NCBI GenBank assembly: GCA_964490485.1
Contig: CAZBCT010000002.1
Span: forward strand, 18,993-50,992
Length of the DNA: 32,000 bases
Source: an uncultured Candidatus Brocadia sp.
Lineage (GTDB): Bacteria; Planctomycetota; Brocadiia; Brocadiales; Brocadiaceae
Direction: 5' to 3'
Made by a program: the position numbers and the translations under genes. Below are positions 6,789-13,219 of this stretch, piece by piece; the stretch's first letter is position 1, and each line of letters begins with the position of its first letter. The notes under the pieces are model-generated. The model was given only the letters and a program-made list of their open reading frames with translations. It ran no database searches and had not been told where the DNA came from.

Positions 6789-9700
6789 TTATGGGAAATA
6801 GAGCCCACCGGTGTTGAGAGAGCTAGCGCCATTATATCCTCCCCACACGATCATCTCTGTATTTGTCCAGACCGCGGTGTGGCCATACCTGCCGCTGGGG
6901 GCACCTATGCTGGCTGTGGGCGTCCAGGTATTTGTCGATGGGTTATAACGTCCACCGCTGTTGAAATAATTCGTACCATTCCATCCTCCCCATACGATCA
7001 TCTGCGTACCTGTCCACACCGCTGTGTGAGAATCACGGCCGCTGGGGGCACCTGTCGTGGTGGTGGGTGTCCAGGTATTTGTCGATGGGTTGTAACGATA
7101 ACCAGTATAGAGCCATATACTTCCGGAAGAAAAACCTTGTCCACCCCATATAATCATCTCGGTGCCAGTCCACACCCACGTGAAATAAATTCGGGCGCTG
7201 GGAGCACCTGTGGTGGATATAGGTAGCCATTGTCCTGACGATGGGTTGTAACGTCCACCGGTGTTGACATAACCAGAACTGCCTGCCCCTCCCCACACAA
7301 TCATCCACCCTCCGGCCCACACCGCTGCGTGCCCTCCCCTGGGTGAGAGAATACTTGCGGATGTGGGTGCCCATGTATCAGACACGGGATTGTAACGTCC
7401 GCCGGTGTTGAGATAATTAATAGCATCCCTCCCACCCCACACGATCATCTCTGTGCTCGTCCATACTGCCGTGTGAGCAACTCTGGCGCTGGGGGCGCCC
7501 GTCGTGGATGTGGGTGTCCATGTGTTTGTCGATGGGTTGTATCGTCCGCCGGTATTCCAATATTGATTACCTGTAATACCAACCCCACCCCACACGATCA
7601 TCTGTGTGCCCGTCCATACCACCGTGTGCCTTGCCCGGGCAGTGGGGACGTTTGTAATGCTTGTAGCTGACCACGAGTTTGTCGATGGGCTGTAGCGTCC
7701 ACCGGTGTTGAAATAAGTCGTGCCATTCCATCCCCCCCACACGATCATCTGCGTGCCTGTCCACACCGCCGTATGCCAGTATCGTGCACCAGGGGCGCCT
7801 AGTGTGGTCGTGGATGTGGTGGTCCATGAGTTTAACGACGGGTTGTAGCGTCCGCCGGTATTGAGATACGAAGAACTACCATATCCACCCCAAACAATCA
7901 TCTCCGTGTTCGTCCACACTGCCGTGTGAAGCTGTCTGGCGATGGGGGCACCTGTCACAGCAGTAGATATCCATGAGTTTGTCGACGGGCTGTACCTTCC
8001 GCCGGTGCCGAGAAAATTGATAGCATCCACTCCCCCCCACACGATCATCACTGTGCCCGTCCATACCGCCGTGTGATAGCGCCGGCCGCTGGGGGTTACT
8101 GCTGACAAGAGTGTTGGTGTCCATGTGTTTGCCGAAGGGTTGTACCGTCCACCGGTGTTGAGATAACCGCCATTATATCCCCCCCACACGATCATCTCCG
8201 TACCCGTCCATACCGCCGTGTGGAGTTCTCTTGCACCAGGGACACCTGATGTGTTTGTAGTTGCCCAGGTGTTTGTCGATGGACTGTACCGTCCGCCGGT
8301 ATTGAGATAAGTCGTACCATTCCATCCACCCCACACGATCATCTGCGTACCCGTCCATACCGCCGTGTGATAGCGTCGGCCGCTGGGGACTCCTGTCGTA
8401 GCTGTTGATGTCCAGGTATTTGTCGATGGGCTGTAACGTCCGCCGGTGTTAAGATAACTGCCATTCCATCCACCCCACACGATCATCTGTGTGCCCGTCC
8501 ATACCGCCGTGTGATAGCGTCGGCCGCTGGGTGCACCTGTCGTGGTTGTGGGTGTCCAGCTATTTGCTGATAGGTTGTAGCGTCCGCCGGTGTTAAGATT
8601 ACCAGCACTATCATTTCCTCCCCATATAATCATCTCGGTACCAGTCCATACTGCACTATGTCCCGTACGGCCAGTCGGTGCACCCGCCAAGCTCATTTGT
8701 TGCCAACTATTGGTGGACGGATTGTAACGGACTCCATTGTTTTGATAACCGTACGTAATGCCACCATAGCCACCCCACACGATCATCTGTGCACCCGTCC
8801 ACACCGCCGTGTGCCCGCTCCGGGATGGGACTTGACTTGCAGCCGTTGGAGACCAGGTATTGGGTACAGAAGCATAGGGCAGGGGGACTGCTGCAATTTC
8901 AGGCAAGCTATAGGTAAATGCCTCACCTTCTACCTCATGTGCAAACCGCTCATTCTCCCGTGACCACCACTTGCCAAAATCCACCTTCCTCCACTCCACC
9001 ACTGCCACCTTTACCTGATCTGTCTCCTTCTGTAACACCTCAACCACATAAAACCTCTCCGCATCCTCCTGTAACCCACTTACCCGTCCCACGGGGATAT
9101 TATCTTCCTTCTCTCCAAATATCTCTGACAACCTCCCTGTCTCTTCCTGCCACTCATCCTCAGAAAGTTCCAGGGTGTCTCCACTTATGTTATCCTTTGT
9201 GTTCTCTTCCGAACTTTCCCCTTCATGTCCGGGCGGAAGCACCCCGCCCCTCCCATTCCCTTTCCGCCATTCCATCTCATGGTATGCGCCTTTCATGTCC
9301 TTCATGTCCTCTATCCTGTCGTGCCCTCTTATACTCTTCATCGCCCGTTTCTTCAATCTCCCATGATACCGTTCATCAAAGGCATACCAGCCGTGTATGA
9401 GTCTTTCCGCGAGCGTCTGTCTGGCCAAGACCTCCGCTATCAACTGCGGATCATTACCCAGCGCCGACCAGAGTTCGCGTAACATATCGGGATTCCGGGT
9501 TGTTTCTGCCATTCGCTCCATCTCCGCCTGGAGATCGCTCCCGGTGATCGGATGATGCCATAACTCTTCCAGCGCCTTTGACTTTCTCAGTACCTCTTCC
9601 ACCTTCTTTTCCAGCTCATCTTCAGACAAAACATCGCTCAACGGTGGTTTTAGAGATGGATTCGCCTCAGGCCAGATCGTATGTCTCCAGTACACCTCTT

Positions 9701-9854
9701 CTATGGCCCTCTGACATGCCACCCGCGCCTCAAGGCTCAATTCTCCGTTTCCTGCAACAGACTCTCCAACACACATTCCTATACTGAGAATCCACAGCAA
9801 CCATATCAACCAATACCTACCACACAAAACATTCATTACATACTTGCGCGACAT
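6789..9854 (-). CDS. Exported or membrane-anchored protein: signal/anchor, conserved N-terminal domain of unknown function, acidic linker, and 14 Kelch-type beta-propeller blades
   Basis: ORF runs 6789-10007. I place the start at the ATG at 9854 (MSRKYVMNVLCGRYWLIWLLWILSIGMCVG...), which is preceded by GGAAAGGAGGAG and starts a signal-like hydrophobic segment. There are 14 repeats of HTAVWTGTxMIVWGG(x5-9)NTGGRYNPSTNTWTPT. Confidence 0.85.
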   Translation of the reverse strand: MSRKYVMNVLCGRYWLIWLLWILSIGMCVGESVAGNGELSLEARVACQRAIEEVYWRHTIWPEANPSLKPPLSDVLSEDELEKKVEEVLRKSKALEELWHHPITGSDLQAEMERMAETTRNPDMLRELWSALGNDPQLIAEVLARQTLAERLIHGWYAFDERYHGRLKKRAMKSIRGHDRIEDMKDMKGAYHEMEWRKGNGRGGVLPPGHEGESSEENTKDNISGDTLELSEDEWQEETGRLSEIFGEKEDNIPVGRVSGLQEDAERFYVVEVLQKETDQVKVAVVEWRKVDFGKWWSRENERFAHEVEGEAFTYSLPEIAAVPLPYASVPNTWSPTAASQVPSRSGHTAVWTGAQMIVWGGYGGITYGYQNNGVRYNPSTNSWQQMSLAGAPTGRTGHSAVWTGTEMIIWGGNDSAGNLNTGGRYNLSANSWTPTTTTGAPSGRRYHTAVWTGTQMIVWGGWNGSYLNTGGRYSPSTNTWTSTATTGVPSGRRYHTAVWTGTQMIVWGGWNGTTYLNTGGRYSPSTNTWATTNTSGVPGARELHTAVWTGTEMIVWGGYNGGYLNTGGRYNPSANTWTPTLLSAVTPSGRRYHTAVWTGTVMIVWGGVDAINFLGTGGRYSPSTNSWISTAVTGAPIARQLHTAVWTNTEMIVWGGYGSSSYLNTGGRYNPSLNSWTTTSTTTLGAPGARYWHTAVWTGTQMIVWGGWNGTTYFNTGGRYSPSTNSWSATSITNVPTARARHTVVWTGTQMIVWGGVGITGNQYWNTGGRYNPSTNTWTPTSTTGAPSARVAHTAVWTSTEMIVWGGRDAINYLNTGGRYNPVSDTWAPTSASILSPRGGHAAVWAGGWMIVWGGAGSSGYVNTGGRYNPSSGQWLPISTTGAPSARIYFTWVWTGTEMIIWGGQGFSSGSIWLYTGYRYNPSTNTWTPTTTTGAPSGRDSHTAVWTGTQMIVWGGWNGTNYFNSGGRYNPSTNTWTPTASIGAPSGRYGHTAVWTNTEMIVWGGYNGASSLNTGGLYFP
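6795..8830 (-). repeat. In-frame tandem DNA repeat (period ~144-159 bp, 14 copies) encoding the Kelch blades
   Basis: Recurring strings such as ccccacacgatcatctg(c/t)gt(g/a)cc(c/t)gtcca(t/c)accgccgtgtg recur once per repeat unit through the region. Confidence 0.9.
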
Positions 9855-10198
9855 ATACTCTCCTCCTTTCCTGGTGCTAAGCAAATCCGTTAAAAGTAAT
9901 AAACGATTTTCCAAAGCATACATTCCTGTAAAAGGCTTGCATTGCCTGCTCTCATGTAACCGCACGGCTTCAGCCTGCGTATATATGACTCTATTGAAAA
10001 AGTCCAATATTCAGCATTTTTTAAAAATCCATAAGTCGTAAATTGTTGATATGATTTAATCTAAGTTTTGTGAATTTTGTAAAACAGGGGTTTTTCAACA
10101 GAGTCATATATGTGCACAATATGGCAATAGTTTCAGATGCATACGTAAGTGCAGCATACCCAAAATGTGCACACTAAAGGGATGCGGCTACACCCTAG

Positions 10199-10255
10199 GA
10201 AACAAAAAAGCCTTACTGCAAAAATGTTAATTAAAACATCCTCGGCAGTAAGGCT
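10199..10255 (-). terminator. Intrinsic terminator, strongest on the minus strand and weaker on the plus strand
   Basis: Minus strand: AGCCTTACTGC (10255-10245) pairs with GCAGTAAGGCT (10219-10209). An inner ATGTT/AACAT extension is present. TTTTTTGTTT follows at 10208-10199. Confidence 0.65.
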
Positions 10256-10284
10256 ATCTTTTTAAACCTATCCGTTGAAAATAA

Positions 10285-10385
10285 AGGACTTTTATTGTCC
10301 CCGTATACTTCCTTGTACCCCGGAAAGACCCTTTCCTTTGCGTCCCCCGATCACTCAGGGTTTGCCTTTGTCGCAGTGCTCTATT
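10285..10385 (-). promoter_or_regulatory. Candidate c-di-GMP-I (GEMM-I)-like riboswitch aptamer in the leader of the Kelch-repeat gene
   Basis: Minus strand 10371-10315 reads ACAAAGGCAAA-CCCUGA-GUGA-UCGGGG-GACGCAAAGGAAAGGGUCUUUCCGGGGUAC. The GGCAAACC block, a 6-bp stem with a GNRA loop and the GGGACGCAAAG block sit at the spacing I recall for GEMM-I. The 3' half (P3/P1) could not be aligned convincingly by eye. Confidence 0.5.
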
Positions 10386-10419
10386 TATGTTTAAATACTG
10401 TCAGTTTTAAATTGCGGCC

Positions 10420-10448
10420 AATTTACAAAATAAATGGATTCCTGTCAA
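10420..10448 (-). promoter_or_regulatory. sigma70-type promoter candidate driving the riboswitch-like leader
   Basis: Minus strand: TTGACA (10448-10443), 17-nt spacer, TAAATT (10425-10420). The predicted TSS is near 10413. Confidence 0.45.
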
Positions 10449-10563
10449 GCAAATAATAAAGTACCTATTTTCATTGAAATTAATCCCGGGAAAAAGCCAC
10501 CCGGACTATTTTGTCAATGAAACTGAGTTTCACGGACCGAATAGTTTTGGATAACTTTATCCT

Positions 10564-10591
10564 TTGTGTCTTCATTACTTTGTGGCATAAT
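10564..10591 (+). promoter_or_regulatory. Extended -10 promoter candidate for the JAB-DinG gene (would give a leaderless mRNA)
   Basis: TTGTGT (10564-10569), 16-nt spacer ending in TGG, CATAAT (10586-10591). The A of the ATG at 10598 is 7 nt after the -10 element, and no Shine-Dalgarno is visible. Confidence 0.35.
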
Positions 10592-10597
10592 TAAAAT

Positions 10598-13219
10598 ATG
10601 AAAACGACTGCATGGCTGGCTAAAGAATTCATACTGCCCGGCGCCGTTTCTTCCATCAGAGACGCAATAGAAAAGGCGGGGGGAAATGAGATATTCATGG
10701 TGGGAAGGCTTAACGACGACCTCATGGTGACGGATGTTGATGTCTATGCCATGGGCAATAGAACAGCCGTACCGGCTCTGATAAAAGAGGCAAAATGCGG
10801 GGACGTTATTATCCACAACCACACGGATGGGGGGTTGGAACCATCCGATGCGGACCTTGAGATTGCTTCATATATGGGGTCTCAGAATGTGGGATGCTAT
10901 ATCGTGGACAATACCGTGGAATTTGTATACCCTGTGGTAAGGGTAATGAAAGGGCGGATATGTAAAAAGCTAACCTTCAGCGAACTATCCGCACAATTTC
11001 AGCCCGGAGGAAATTTTGCACGGCACTTGCCTCAATATGAATACCGCAAGCCGCAGGTCGAGATGCTGAAGTCCGCCGTTGACGCCTTTAATGAAGACAA
11101 AATTGCCGTGATTGAGGCGGGGACAGGGACGGGGAAATCCATGGCATATCTGGTTCCTGCCGTATCCTGGAGTATAAAAAACCAGGAACGGGTAGTAGTT
11201 TCCACCCATACGATAAATCTCCAGGAACAATTAATTGAGAAAGATATCCCGATACTCAGGACTTGTTGCGGACTTGATTTCAAGAGTGTCCTGGTAAAAG
11301 GAAGAAATAATTACGTGTGCCTCAGAAAGGTTTCCAATGTACGTTCTGATAGCGGCACGCTGATTGAAGACAAAGATCGCCGGCAACTGAACGATCTGTT
11401 AGCATGGGCAGCAAAGACGCGGGACGGGAGCAAGGCCGACCTGAATTTTGTGCCACAGGAGGACGTCTGGGAGGCAATTCAATCTGAGGCAGACCAGTGC
11501 ACACGGCTGAAGTGCCCGTTTTATGACGAGTGCTTTTTTTATATCGCCCGGAGAAATGCAGCCAGCGCGGATATTTTGGTCATAAATCACTATCTCCTGA
11601 TGGCCGATCTGATGGTACGCAAGGAAACGAAGGGGTACGACGCCGTGGCTATTTTACCTCCCTTCCAGAAAATTATTATTGATGAAGCGCACCACCTTGA
11701 AGATGTGGCAACGGCAAATCTCAGCACGACGATTTCGAGATTACGGATCGTAAAACTCCTGGGGAGGTTGGTCAATCTCAAGGATGCGAGAAAAGGACTG
11801 TTGCAGTACCTGAAGAGCAAATTCAAAGAAGTGAGTTCTGTGCATGACAAGGATATTGCAGAAAAAATTACCGACAGAATCAACACGGAAATCCTGGAGG
11901 CGCGACAGCTTCTCTATGATACCGTGCAGGGAATTTTTGAAGATATGTCCCAGACGGTAAGTAATTATAGTATTCACACCGGATTGCAAAAAGAAGCGAT
12001 GAAGGATGAAGAACTCCGGTTTCGCATTACCGACAGTTTTATTGCTACCGATCTGTGGCGGGATGTTATCGAGAATCAACTCAGAAAATTAAGCGCTGAT
12101 ATCCGGAGATTTGTTTCTCTCTTAACGTCACTCCTCGATGAATTGGCGGAACTCTCAAAGAAATCACAGGACGTTTTGTCGTCTGTGCTGATCGATATCC
12201 TATCGTGCAAGATGCGATTGAAGTTAGTGGCAAACGAGATTGACGCCTTTATTGTTGAGAATGAAAAGGTTTGCAAATGGATTGAGATGAAGAGATACGC
12301 AGGGGAACCGGCCATCAGGTTTTGCGCTGCGCCGCTTTCAGTTTCCGAAGATTTAAAGACCTGCCTCTACGATCATTATCGTACGATACTCCTGACATCA
12401 GCTACCCTGGCAACCAACAAGACCTTTACCTTTTTCAAAGACAGTATTGGCTTGCACCAGATTCCAGAAAGGCAATTATCTGAACTGATCCTGGATTCTC
12501 CCTTTGATTACCAGCGTCAATCGATTCTTGGCATTCCCACAGACATTGCAGAACCCGGCCAGCCGGGGTATGTTTCGGCGCTGGAAGCGAGCATCTTGCA
12601 GGCCATACAAATCTCAGAAGGCCGTGCGTTAGTCCTGTTTACCTCATACAGCCTTCTCAATGATCTTTATCAGAGGTTAGAACCACAGATTACGCGACTC
12701 GGTTATGTTTGTCTGAAGCAGGGAGCGGGCAGTCGACACAACCTCCTTGAGGCATTTAAAAAAGACGCGACGTCGGTCTTGTTTGCTACAGACAGTTTCT
12801 GGGAAGGGATTGATGTACGGGGGGATGCGCTGGAATGCGTCATCCTCACCCGCTTGCCGTTTAAAGTGCCGACACAGCCCATCATTGAGGCAAGGGTCGA
12901 GGCTATTGAAAAGGCAGGGGGTGATGCCTTTTTGCAATATTCCGTACCTATGGCGGTGATTAAATTCAAACAGGGCTTTGGACGGCTCATACGCAGTCGC
13001 GAGGATAAGGGCGTAGTGGTTGTTTTCGACCGCCGGATAGTTACCAAAAGATATGGGCGTGTCTTTCTTCAATCACTTCCGGATATCAGGTGTATTAAGG
13101 ATAAGAGAGACGTTGTTTTTCAGGAAATGAGGCTCTTTTTCGGTGGCGGCACTGCTTTTTCCCGGCAGGGAAAAGAGAGTCCTTCCGGCAAGACCTCGAA
13201 GCACTCTCTCCATGAATAG
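10598..13219 (+). CDS. dinG: RadC-like JAB/MPN (JAMM) domain fused to a DinG/XPD-family Fe-S ATP-dependent DNA helicase
   Basis: 873 aa. N-terminus: E31 then H73-N-H75-TDGGLEP-S83-DA-D86, which fits ExnHxHx7SxxD. Helicase: EAGTGTGKS (Walker A), IIDEAHHLED (DEAH), four Cys (VC ... QCTRLKCPFYDEC, spacing C-x4-C-x5-C as in DinG) and QGFGRLIRS (motif VI). Confidence 0.85.
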   Translation: MKTTAWLAKEFILPGAVSSIRDAIEKAGGNEIFMVGRLNDDLMVTDVDVYAMGNRTAVPALIKEAKCGDVIIHNHTDGGLEPSDADLEIASYMGSQNVGCYIVDNTVEFVYPVVRVMKGRICKKLTFSELSAQFQPGGNFARHLPQYEYRKPQVEMLKSAVDAFNEDKIAVIEAGTGTGKSMAYLVPAVSWSIKNQERVVVSTHTINLQEQLIEKDIPILRTCCGLDFKSVLVKGRNNYVCLRKVSNVRSDSGTLIEDKDRRQLNDLLAWAAKTRDGSKADLNFVPQEDVWEAIQSEADQCTRLKCPFYDECFFYIARRNAASADILVINHYLLMADLMVRKETKGYDAVAILPPFQKIIIDEAHHLEDVATANLSTTISRLRIVKLLGRLVNLKDARKGLLQYLKSKFKEVSSVHDKDIAEKITDRINTEILEARQLLYDTVQGIFEDMSQTVSNYSIHTGLQKEAMKDEELRFRITDSFIATDLWRDVIENQLRKLSADIRRFVSLLTSLLDELAELSKKSQDVLSSVLIDILSCKMRLKLVANEIDAFIVENEKVCKWIEMKRYAGEPAIRFCAAPLSVSEDLKTCLYDHYRTILLTSATLATNKTFTFFKDSIGLHQIPERQLSELILDSPFDYQRQSILGIPTDIAEPGQPGYVSALEASILQAIQISEGRALVLFTSYSLLNDLYQRLEPQITRLGYVCLKQGAGSRHNLLEAFKKDATSVLFATDSFWEGIDVRGDALECVILTRLPFKVPTQPIIEARVEAIEKAGGDAFLQYSVPMAVIKFKQGFGRLIRSREDKGVVVVFDRRIVTKRYGRVFLQSLPDIRCIKDKRDVVFQEMRLFFGGGTAFSRQGKESPSGKTSKHSLHE

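Follow-up and report, generated by a model that had tools for sequence, protein, structure and literature searches.

Cyclic di-GMP (c-di-GMP) riboswitches of class I, also known as GEMM-I RNAs, include a type 2 form (RF01051; Weinberg 2007, PMC1950547) that is the nearest described relative of the element considered here. This element lies on the minus strand of a 32,000-nucleotide (nt) stretch of DNA from an uncultured Candidatus Brocadia sp. (hereafter the window, meaning the whole stretch), in the gap between a gene for a Kelch-repeat protein and a dinG-like helicase gene. The type 2 RNAs and the window element have in common a two-hairpin aptamer with a GGCAAAC...GACGCAAA core and an AAA junction, a GYRA tetraloop with no 11-nt receptor, a terminator that shares sequence with the second helix, and a position in the 5′ untranslated region of an extracellular or membrane-related gene. 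It has been reported that the linker between the two hairpins is virtually always AAA, that RNAs with a GYRA tetraloop have no 11-nt receptor, that the terminator-overlap arrangement occurs in 78 of 322 GEMM RNAs, where more ligand is predicted to give more expression, and that GEMM RNAs are common in certain Planctomycetes (Weinberg 2007, PMC1950547). Unlike the GEMM consensus, in which the tip of the second helix has about 14 nt, the window element carries there 65 nt of small hairpins.

The structural reference of the class, Vc2 from the tfoY leader of V. cholerae, belongs to type 1 (a GAAA tetraloop and, in a short second helix, its receptor) and is not known to have the terminator arrangement seen in the window. 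Nevertheless, its residues G20, A47, and C92 and its interhelical C-G pair have identical counterparts in the window element. In vivo, Vc2 is reported to be an off switch that also controls small RNA stability, whereas the window element is predicted to be an ON switch. The c-di-GMP-I/GEMM riboswitch was reportedly also described by Sudarsan et al., 2008. The closest functional analogue is Bc2 of B. thuringiensis, which precedes the collagen adhesion protein gene cap and is described as an ON riboswitch by transcriptional fusion (Tang et al. 2016, cited in PMC11218506); this c-di-GMP-I riboswitch upstream of a surface adhesin gene comes from a different phylum and is experimentally verified, whereas the window element is known from its sequence. 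Finally, the GEMM-Ib riboswitches of Geobacter, which sense cyclic GMP-AMP (cGAMP), have the same fold, occur in multiple copies and control extracellular functions, with A at position 20 where the window has G (Kellenberger 2015 and Nelson 2015, cited in PMC6140456).

The whole window was scanned against all 4227 Rfam families at their curated thresholds, and RF01051 (c-di-GMP-I) was the only one whose gathering score was attained in any part of it. The match, at 10376-10241 on the minus strand, scores 51.5 bits against a gathering score of 35 (expectation value, E, 1.8e-7), and the alignment covers model positions 1-87 of 87. The resemblance is far from a chance one; the element is a genuine class I c-di-GMP riboswitch aptamer and an ordinary member of a known family, which bears out the GEMM-I call made from the letters in an earlier note. 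Any Rfam-based annotation would find it, and the RF01051 class was already noted in the phylum in 2007. The c-di-GMP-II model, presumably RF01786, gave no match at its gathering threshold in the full Rfam scan, nor at E up to 10 in the region 9700-10700.

The sequences on which the earlier note had built were all verified on the minus strand: the promoter TTGACA-17-TAAATT; ACAAAGGCAAACCCUGAGUGAUCGGGGGACGCAAAGG from 10371, with the successive blocks GGCAAACC, the 6-bp stem with its GUGA loop, and GGGACGCAAAG; and the stem plus UUUUUUGUUU at 10255-10199. The blocks of its proposed aptamer core (10371-10315) are real, but the element is longer, and its 3′ half (10261-10243) lies within what had been taken for a separate terminator. 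The first hairpin, named P1 by Weinberg 2007 (PMC1950547) and P2 in the crystal structures, consists of a 2-bp stem (G10365-C10340, C10364-G10341), an AAA internal loop and the 6-bp stem. As its GUGA tetraloop is of the GYRA kind, no 11-nt receptor is expected. The AAA linker joining both hairpins is A10339-A10337.

In the second helix, the covariance model pairs AGGAAAGGGUC (10337-10327) with GAUAGCCUUACU (10258-10247) over a 65-nt insertion, where the consensus has a loop of about 14 nt. The paired strands read AGGA-A-AGGGUC and GAU-AG-CCUUACU, respectively; UUU/AAA lengthens the helix to 10324/10261, and C10244 and G10243 form the closing P1 pairs with G10372 and C10373. Instead of the truncated P3 or partial resemblance that had been considered, the helix is therefore enlarged by an insertion, and GGGGUAC (10321-10315) is not the counterpart of Vc2 GGGGUUACC, the true 3′ strand being at 10261-10243. 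The local hairpin GGAAAG-GGU-CUUUCC, which the earlier note had read as P3, was also tried as the second helix and rejected: it appears in single-sequence minimum-free-energy folds, but the covariance model and the covariation support the long-range pairing, so that it is at most a competing local fold.

Relatives of the element were collected by a genome scan with one genome per species for a GEMM-I core followed by a second-helix span of 60-90 nt. This gave at least 109 stretches, and about three-quarters of the matches listed come from anammox Planctomycetota (Brocadia, Scalindua, Kuenenia, Loosdrechtia). The structure was tested on 21 window-type copies, with controls in which the pairing partners were slid. 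The proposed structure has 90.9% of cells paired vs. 31-44% in the slid controls; compensatory change occurs at 11 pairs, and none of 500 shuffles matched the observed covariation score. The second-helix segments (helices 4 and 5) have 91-96% of cells paired in these 21 relatives. Compensatory changes in the CCCUGA/UCGGGG stem, proposed earlier as a check on the aptamer, are found at 4 of its 6 pairs among 34 unique paralogue sequences: CG22/AU7/UG4 at pair 3, UA20/CG4/GC3/UG4 at pair 4, GC25/GU5/AU3 at pair 5, and AU29/GC3 at pair 6. The tetraloops in the same sequences are GUGA, GCGA, GUAA or GCAA.

Alignment to Vc2 via the covariance model makes G10366 the equivalent of G20, A10339 of A47 and C10245 of C92, while C10342 (C44) forms the interhelical pair with G10254 (the G83 equivalent); the roles of these residues have been described (PMC4744006, PMC6140456). 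Relatives that sense cGAMP carry A at position 20 (PMC6140456), and the window has G10366 there. With G, A, and C at the three key positions, the expected ligand would be c-di-GMP and not cGAMP, in agreement with the tentative preference voiced before.

The aptamer 3′ strand AGCCUUACUGCC (10255-10244) doubles as the 5′ arm of an intrinsic terminator. The latter has an 11-bp stem (a perfect 11/11 pairs) and a 25-nt loop holding an inner stem, followed by UUUUUUGUUU; the hairpin alone is worth -27.9 kcal/mol. A simple terminator scan missed it because the loop limit was 8 nt. The same terminator, with the 5′ arm AGCCUUACUGC, is present in all three orthologous leaders (loci L001-L003), and in these, as in the window, the arm is identical to the aptamer 3′ strand. 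The terminator of the earlier note is thus real and conserved, but it is not a separate module 60 nt downstream of the aptamer, its 5′ arm being the aptamer 3′ strand itself. Moreover, covariation with the aptamer strand is seen at terminator position 7 (A-U 18, C-G 3, G.U 3): the change of A to C in the aptamer strand of L051, L054, and L097 is matched by U to G in the terminator 3′ arm, so that selection acts on both alternative structures.

Because the aptamer and the terminator share a strand and are mutually exclusive, an ON switch is predicted; the terminator 5′ arm is inside the ligand-stabilised strand, with no intervening anti-terminator, so that the ligand should prevent termination. 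In our opinion, the element is very probably a c-di-GMP-I riboswitch of type 2 that serves as a transcriptional ON switch for the secreted Kelch gene, and the direction of switching would follow from the aptamer-terminator overlap. RNA polymerase would start near 10413 from the TTGACA/TAAATT promoter, and the aptamer (10376-10241) could fold as the polymerase proceeds. Binding of c-di-GMP would lock the strand AGCCUUACUGCC into the second helix and the closing P1 pairs, and the terminator 3′ arm GCAGUAAGGCU would then be left without a partner, allowing read-through over the leader of about 345 nt into the gene. If no ligand is bound, the more stable terminator hairpin would form and transcription would stop at the U-tract 10208-10200. 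For the whole leader, the computed energies are -60.5 kcal/mol in the terminator form vs. -31.0 kcal/mol with the aptamer enforced; as the terminator form is far more stable, the default state should be termination, and control must be kinetic.

Several points weigh against this explanation. By nearest-neighbour energies, the aptamer fold of this copy is disfavoured by about 11 kcal/mol even before the terminator 3′ arm is made, so that folding must rely on the ligand, tertiary contacts, and kinetics. The second helix contains a G10335/A10249 mismatch; of the 21 relatives, 9 have U-A there and 12 a non-Watson-Crick combination. The invariance of the pocket residues in 88 anammox paralogues is partly fixed by the search pattern and was discounted. 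On the window, another model, RF03167 (c-di-GMP-I-GGC), reaches 54.6 bits, which exceeds the 51.5 bits of RF01051 but not its own gathering score of 59. The structured leader of about 345 nt between the terminator and the ATG could add control, and the ligand, the start site and termination are all deduced from the DNA letters.

The promoter proposed in the earlier note stands: TTGACA/TAAATT is the sole sigma-70-like site found by a promoter scan in 9700-10700, with no second promoter in the leader, and its position suggests a transcription start near 10413. Of 86 paralogous cassettes, 47 have TTGACA in the 130 nt before them, vs. 3 of 86 on the opposite strand, and the full -35/-10 pattern precedes 26 of them vs. 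0 on the reverse strand. This enrichment supports the promoter assigned in the window; the promoter-to-aptamer distance is variable among the paralogous cassettes. The Kelch-dinG gap had been described as containing no open reading frame (ORF), and indeed none of at least 60 amino acids (aa) lies wholly within it; shorter ones look spurious. The features are collected in Table 1.

Table 1. Features of the riboswitch locus (coordinates in the window, lower number first except for HP1-HP3).
Feature	Position	Strand	Basis or detail
Sigma-70-type promoter	10420-10448	-	TTGACA 10448-10443, 17-nt spacer, TAAATT 10425-10420
c-di-GMP-I (GEMM-I) aptamer, full length, type 2 (GYRA tetraloop)	10241-10376	-	RF01051
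Ligand-pocket residues	10337-10366 and C10245 in the 3′ strand	-	alignment to Vc2 via covariance model
First hairpin, CCCUGA/UCGGGG with GUGA tetraloop (10354-10351)	10345-10360	-	sequence and RF01051
Second helix, 5′ strand AGGA-A-AGGGUCUUU	10324-10337	-	covariance model, pair list
Second helix, 3′ strand AAAGAU-AG-CCUUACU, then G, C10245, C10244, G10243	10243-10261	-	covariance model
Lineage-specific insertion, three small hairpins	10262-10323	-	65 nt vs. 14 in the consensus (covariance model)
HP1, GUAC-AAGGAA-GUAU	10318-10305	-	optional extension CCG/CGG (10323-10301)
HP2, GGGGAC-AAUAAAA-GUCCUU	10302-10284	-	insertion hairpin
HP3, AAC-GGAUAG-GUU	10276-10265	-	insertion hairpin
Intrinsic terminator	10200-10255	-	5′ arm AGCCUUACUGC 10255-10245; 3′ arm GCAGUAAGGCU 10219-10209; U-tract UUUUUGUUU 10208-10200
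Remaining 5′ leader	9855-10199	-	about 345 nt, terminator to ATG; structured; Shine-Dalgarno AGGAGGA 9867-9861
Regulated gene, 1021-aa protein	6789-9854	-	N-terminus resembling a signal peptide; about 330 aa lacking a Pfam match; Kelch repeats after these

The closest relatives of the Kelch protein are found in Candidatus Brocadia, with 81% identity in a metagenome-assembled genome of Ca. B. sinica and 59% and 56% in two other Brocadia assemblies; the orthologues (P0002, P0015, P0058) begin at the equivalent ATG. In the three orthologous loci, the neighbouring genes are all different, and a gene-free stretch of 700-900 nt lies upstream of each orthologue. GEMM-I matches of 62.0, 51.8, and 37.2 bits, all at or above threshold, are located there with a large insertion in the same loop, and in an alignment of the orthologous leaders the conserved blocks are the aptamer core and the terminator. 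The occurrence of the aptamer upstream of the Kelch gene in four genomes with different flanking genes indicates that the riboswitch travels with the Kelch gene and not with dinG, in keeping with the link drawn in the earlier note.

Downstream of the terminator, a leader hairpin within 9965-10125 on the minus strand has 26-nt arms (10116-10091 / 10001-9976) that are 88% complementary, with -38.4 kcal/mol and z -5.5. It is missing from the closest orthologous leader (L001, Ca. B. sinica), and neither the window nor 650 kb of anammox DNA held a further copy of the inverted repeat 9976-10116, considered as a mobile element. The hairpin may have been inserted or may be a leader structure specific to the lineage. 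Two post-terminator blocks, 10186-10165 and 9986-9960 on the minus strand (CCGCAUCCCUUUAG..UGC and UACGCAGGCUGAAGCCGUGCGGUUAC), are common with L001 (2811-2832 and 2877-2906), and each is able to form a small hairpin; they may provide further control downstream of the riboswitch. On the other side of the gap, an inverted repeat at 10505-10545 (20 nt, 80% complementary, 1-nt spacer), about 50 nt upstream of the ATG (10598) of the dinG-like helicase, could be an operator of that gene.

Beyond the Kelch loci, the unit of promoter, aptamer, and terminator is an unusually uniform cassette found in dozens of anammox paralogues. The strand AGCCUU(A/G/C)CUGCC is common to 88 anammox copies among the matches listed, and AGCCUUACUGCC is near-invariant in these 88 copies, though partly fixed by the search pattern. 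In the majority of the 88 cassettes, the complementary sequence GCAGUAAGGCU is found 19-29 nt further on, together with a U-tract, and most non-anammox matches are without it. Rfam gave 20 GEMM-I matches in the 17 cassette loci checked; 17 of these are in 13 blocks of the 4.08-Mb genome of Ca. B. pituitae, which makes at least 17 copies for that genome. Two or three GEMM-I copies may stand within 1-2 kb of one another, some in the same orientation and some divergent: L006 (162-274 and 1256-1385), L071 (three), L077 (two, divergent), L047 and L106 (two each). In Ca. B. pituitae, group II intron domains (RF02003 twice, RF00029; L035 1191-2109) lie a few kb from a cassette.

The first ORFs downstream of the cassettes are diverse, mostly with signal peptides. 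They include Amidase_2 (5), Kelch (4), SBBP/DUF7948 propellers (4), CBM9 (3), and subtilases (3), as well as NHL repeats, an autotransporter and a polysaccharide synthesis gene; some, such as RAMP proteins and a sigma-54 activator, are non-surface. The prevalence of secreted or surface proteins fits a GEMM regulon and agrees with the kind of targets that the earlier note had named. In two Brocadia genomes, a RAMP superfamily ORF (type III CRISPR-Cas-like) is located 179 nt downstream of a cassette (L070 3357-4733, minus strand; L072 3940-4608, plus strand); it would be an unusual predicted target of c-di-GMP control.

The insertion that caps the second helix deserves separate consideration. 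The stem of HP1 covaries (GC12/AU4/GU3 and UA14/GC3/UG2), and its ANGGAN loop is conserved; the hairpin rests on comparison, because single-sequence folding of the window prefers another pairing. Helix tips of the cassettes fall into types, and that of the window has the form (G/A)UAC-ANGGAN-GUA followed by a second hairpin, often with another GGA loop. In many cassettes, the tip is built of 3-7 tandem 9-nt units (TAAGCCGTT/TAAACCGTT) and their inverted complement, forming a long rod of variable length, e.g., L053 2623-2685 (-30.9 kcal/mol, z -6.2), and also in L050, L014, L105, L044, and L003; such a tip is a variable-number repeat inside a riboswitch aptamer. HP2 with the following UAUUUUC was flagged as terminator-like by the simple scan, and the equivalent hairpin of L001 is followed by seven U; it might be a pause or a premature stop within the aptamer.

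HP1 has the same ANGGAN hexaloop, C-G closure, and AC/GU flanks as the high-affinity hairpins bound by CsrA/RsmE. Against the published consensus sequences (quoted in PMC6849547), it matches the RsmE form A/U-CANGGANG-U/A at 10 of 10 positions (ACAAGGAAGU, 10316-10307) and the form RUACARGGAUGU, obtained by systematic evolution of ligands by exponential enrichment (SELEX), at 11 of 12, with 12 of 12 in L008, L111, L040, L057, L010, and L035. The strict motif WCANGGANGW occurs at a fixed offset in 35 of the 88 copies vs. 0.34 expected and 0 on the opposite strand. This raises the idea of a dual-input device, in which the insertion hairpins are CsrA/Rsm-type sites besides the c-di-GMP sensor and a protein would modulate folding, or the abundant, prematurely terminated leaders would act as a sponge similar to CsrB/RsmZ. 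The coincidence of the variable loop positions with the N positions of the consensus, the covarying stem, and the second GGA loop or motif about 40 nt downstream in the long subtype speak in its favour, as does the reported occurrence of CsrA-FliW in Planctomycetes in general. We nevertheless hold the idea to be rather unlikely. The match was noticed after the fact, HP1 of the window is just 4 bp long and does not appear in the minimum-free-energy fold of the single sequence, over half of the cassettes are devoid of the motif and have other tips such as the 9-nt tandem repeats, and the GGA of the short subtypes is able to pair with a downstream AUCCUU. The 12-nt form TACANGGANGTA is found 19 times inside cassettes vs. 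once outside in the 650 kb of anammox DNA, which fits a structural RNA module equally well; a purely structural role of HP1-type hairpins is at least as likely as protein binding. No CsrA or FliW gene was matched by tblastn in the same 650 kb, a small part of any genome, and a literature search found no relevant paper on CsrA in anammox genera. No GGA hairpins were found in non-anammox long-helix GEMM-I copies.

To our knowledge, the known CsrA/RsmE sites are in small RNA sponges or at ribosome-binding sites, and none is in an aptamer helix of a riboswitch. If the CsrA reading were true, we know of no earlier riboswitch whose aptamer itself contains sites for a global post-transcriptional regulator. 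In that case, anammox c-di-GMP riboswitches would integrate a second, protein-borne signal or, alternatively, dozens of strongly promoted terminated leaders per genome would amount to a c-di-GMP-gated protein sponge.

As to the direction and level of control, the aptamer might sense c-di-GMP and still be an OFF switch, act on translation or RNA stability, or yield the short terminated RNA as its main product, a set of possibilities that we judge improbable. They draw on the long and structured leader after the terminator, on the terminated RNA, which would be about 210 nt and highly structured, and on reported precedents: Vc2 as an off switch controlling the stability of a small RNA, and Bc1 with dual regulation and a long expression platform. 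However, the terminator 5′ arm wholly within the ligand-stabilised strand, without an anti-terminator, is an ON topology, the aptamer-gene linkage is kept in four genomes despite their differing flanks, and the Shine-Dalgarno sequence is distant from the aptamer and not obviously sequestered by it.

That the ligand is another one, either 3′3′-cGAMP (GEMM-Ib) or the ligand of the c-di-GMP-I-GGC variant, seems very improbable. It is true that RF03167 scores slightly above RF01051 on the window and passes its own threshold on L001 and seven other anammox copies. However, the window and the RF03167-scoring copies read GACGCAAAG, which is the RF01051 consensus, and not GACGCGAAG, the consensus of RF03167; the window stays under the threshold of 59, and its G20 equivalent is G, unlike the A of cGAMP sensors. 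RF03167 probably scores higher because this model has an extra closing helix. The eight anammox copies above the RF03167 threshold despite a canonical GACGCAAA core (L001 2619-2766, L033, L071, L023, L105, L044, L035, and L106) would probably be labelled as the RF03167 variant by Rfam-based annotation; no text match for the meaning of the GGC name was found in Weinberg 2017.

Finally, there is hardly any likelihood that this copy of a multi-copy element is in decay and has lost its function, as might be read from the G.A mismatch, the poor computed stability of the aptamer and the extra leader hairpin missing from the closest orthologue, given that the full-length model match is well over threshold, the pocket residues are all intact, the terminator has 11/11 pairs, 12 of 21 relatives have no Watson-Crick pair at the mismatch position either, and the aptamer-terminator unit is conserved in the orthologous leaders.

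For riboswitch biology, the ON switch described here is in itself routine; what is unusual is only that the cassette is uniform and present in many copies and that its second helix is decorated. A literature search found no paper connecting riboswitches with anammox genera, so that the regulon view and the decorated helix may be undescribed so far, the classification being unchanged by this. Anammox bacteria cannot be grown as pure cultures, and nitrogen removal from wastewater depends centrally on the granules that they form. In anammox sludge, more extracellular polymer goes along with higher c-di-GMP levels (review PMC11224092), and our search found no paper naming any direct c-di-GMP target in anammox bacteria. 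A riboswitch is a direct, protein-independent link, which predicts that the secreted Kelch protein would be switched on by c-di-GMP. The same prediction would extend to the other cassette genes, encoding cell-wall amidases, beta-propeller and carbohydrate-binding proteins, subtilases, and the autotransporter, which together give specific candidates for matrix and adhesion proteins that can be put to the test.

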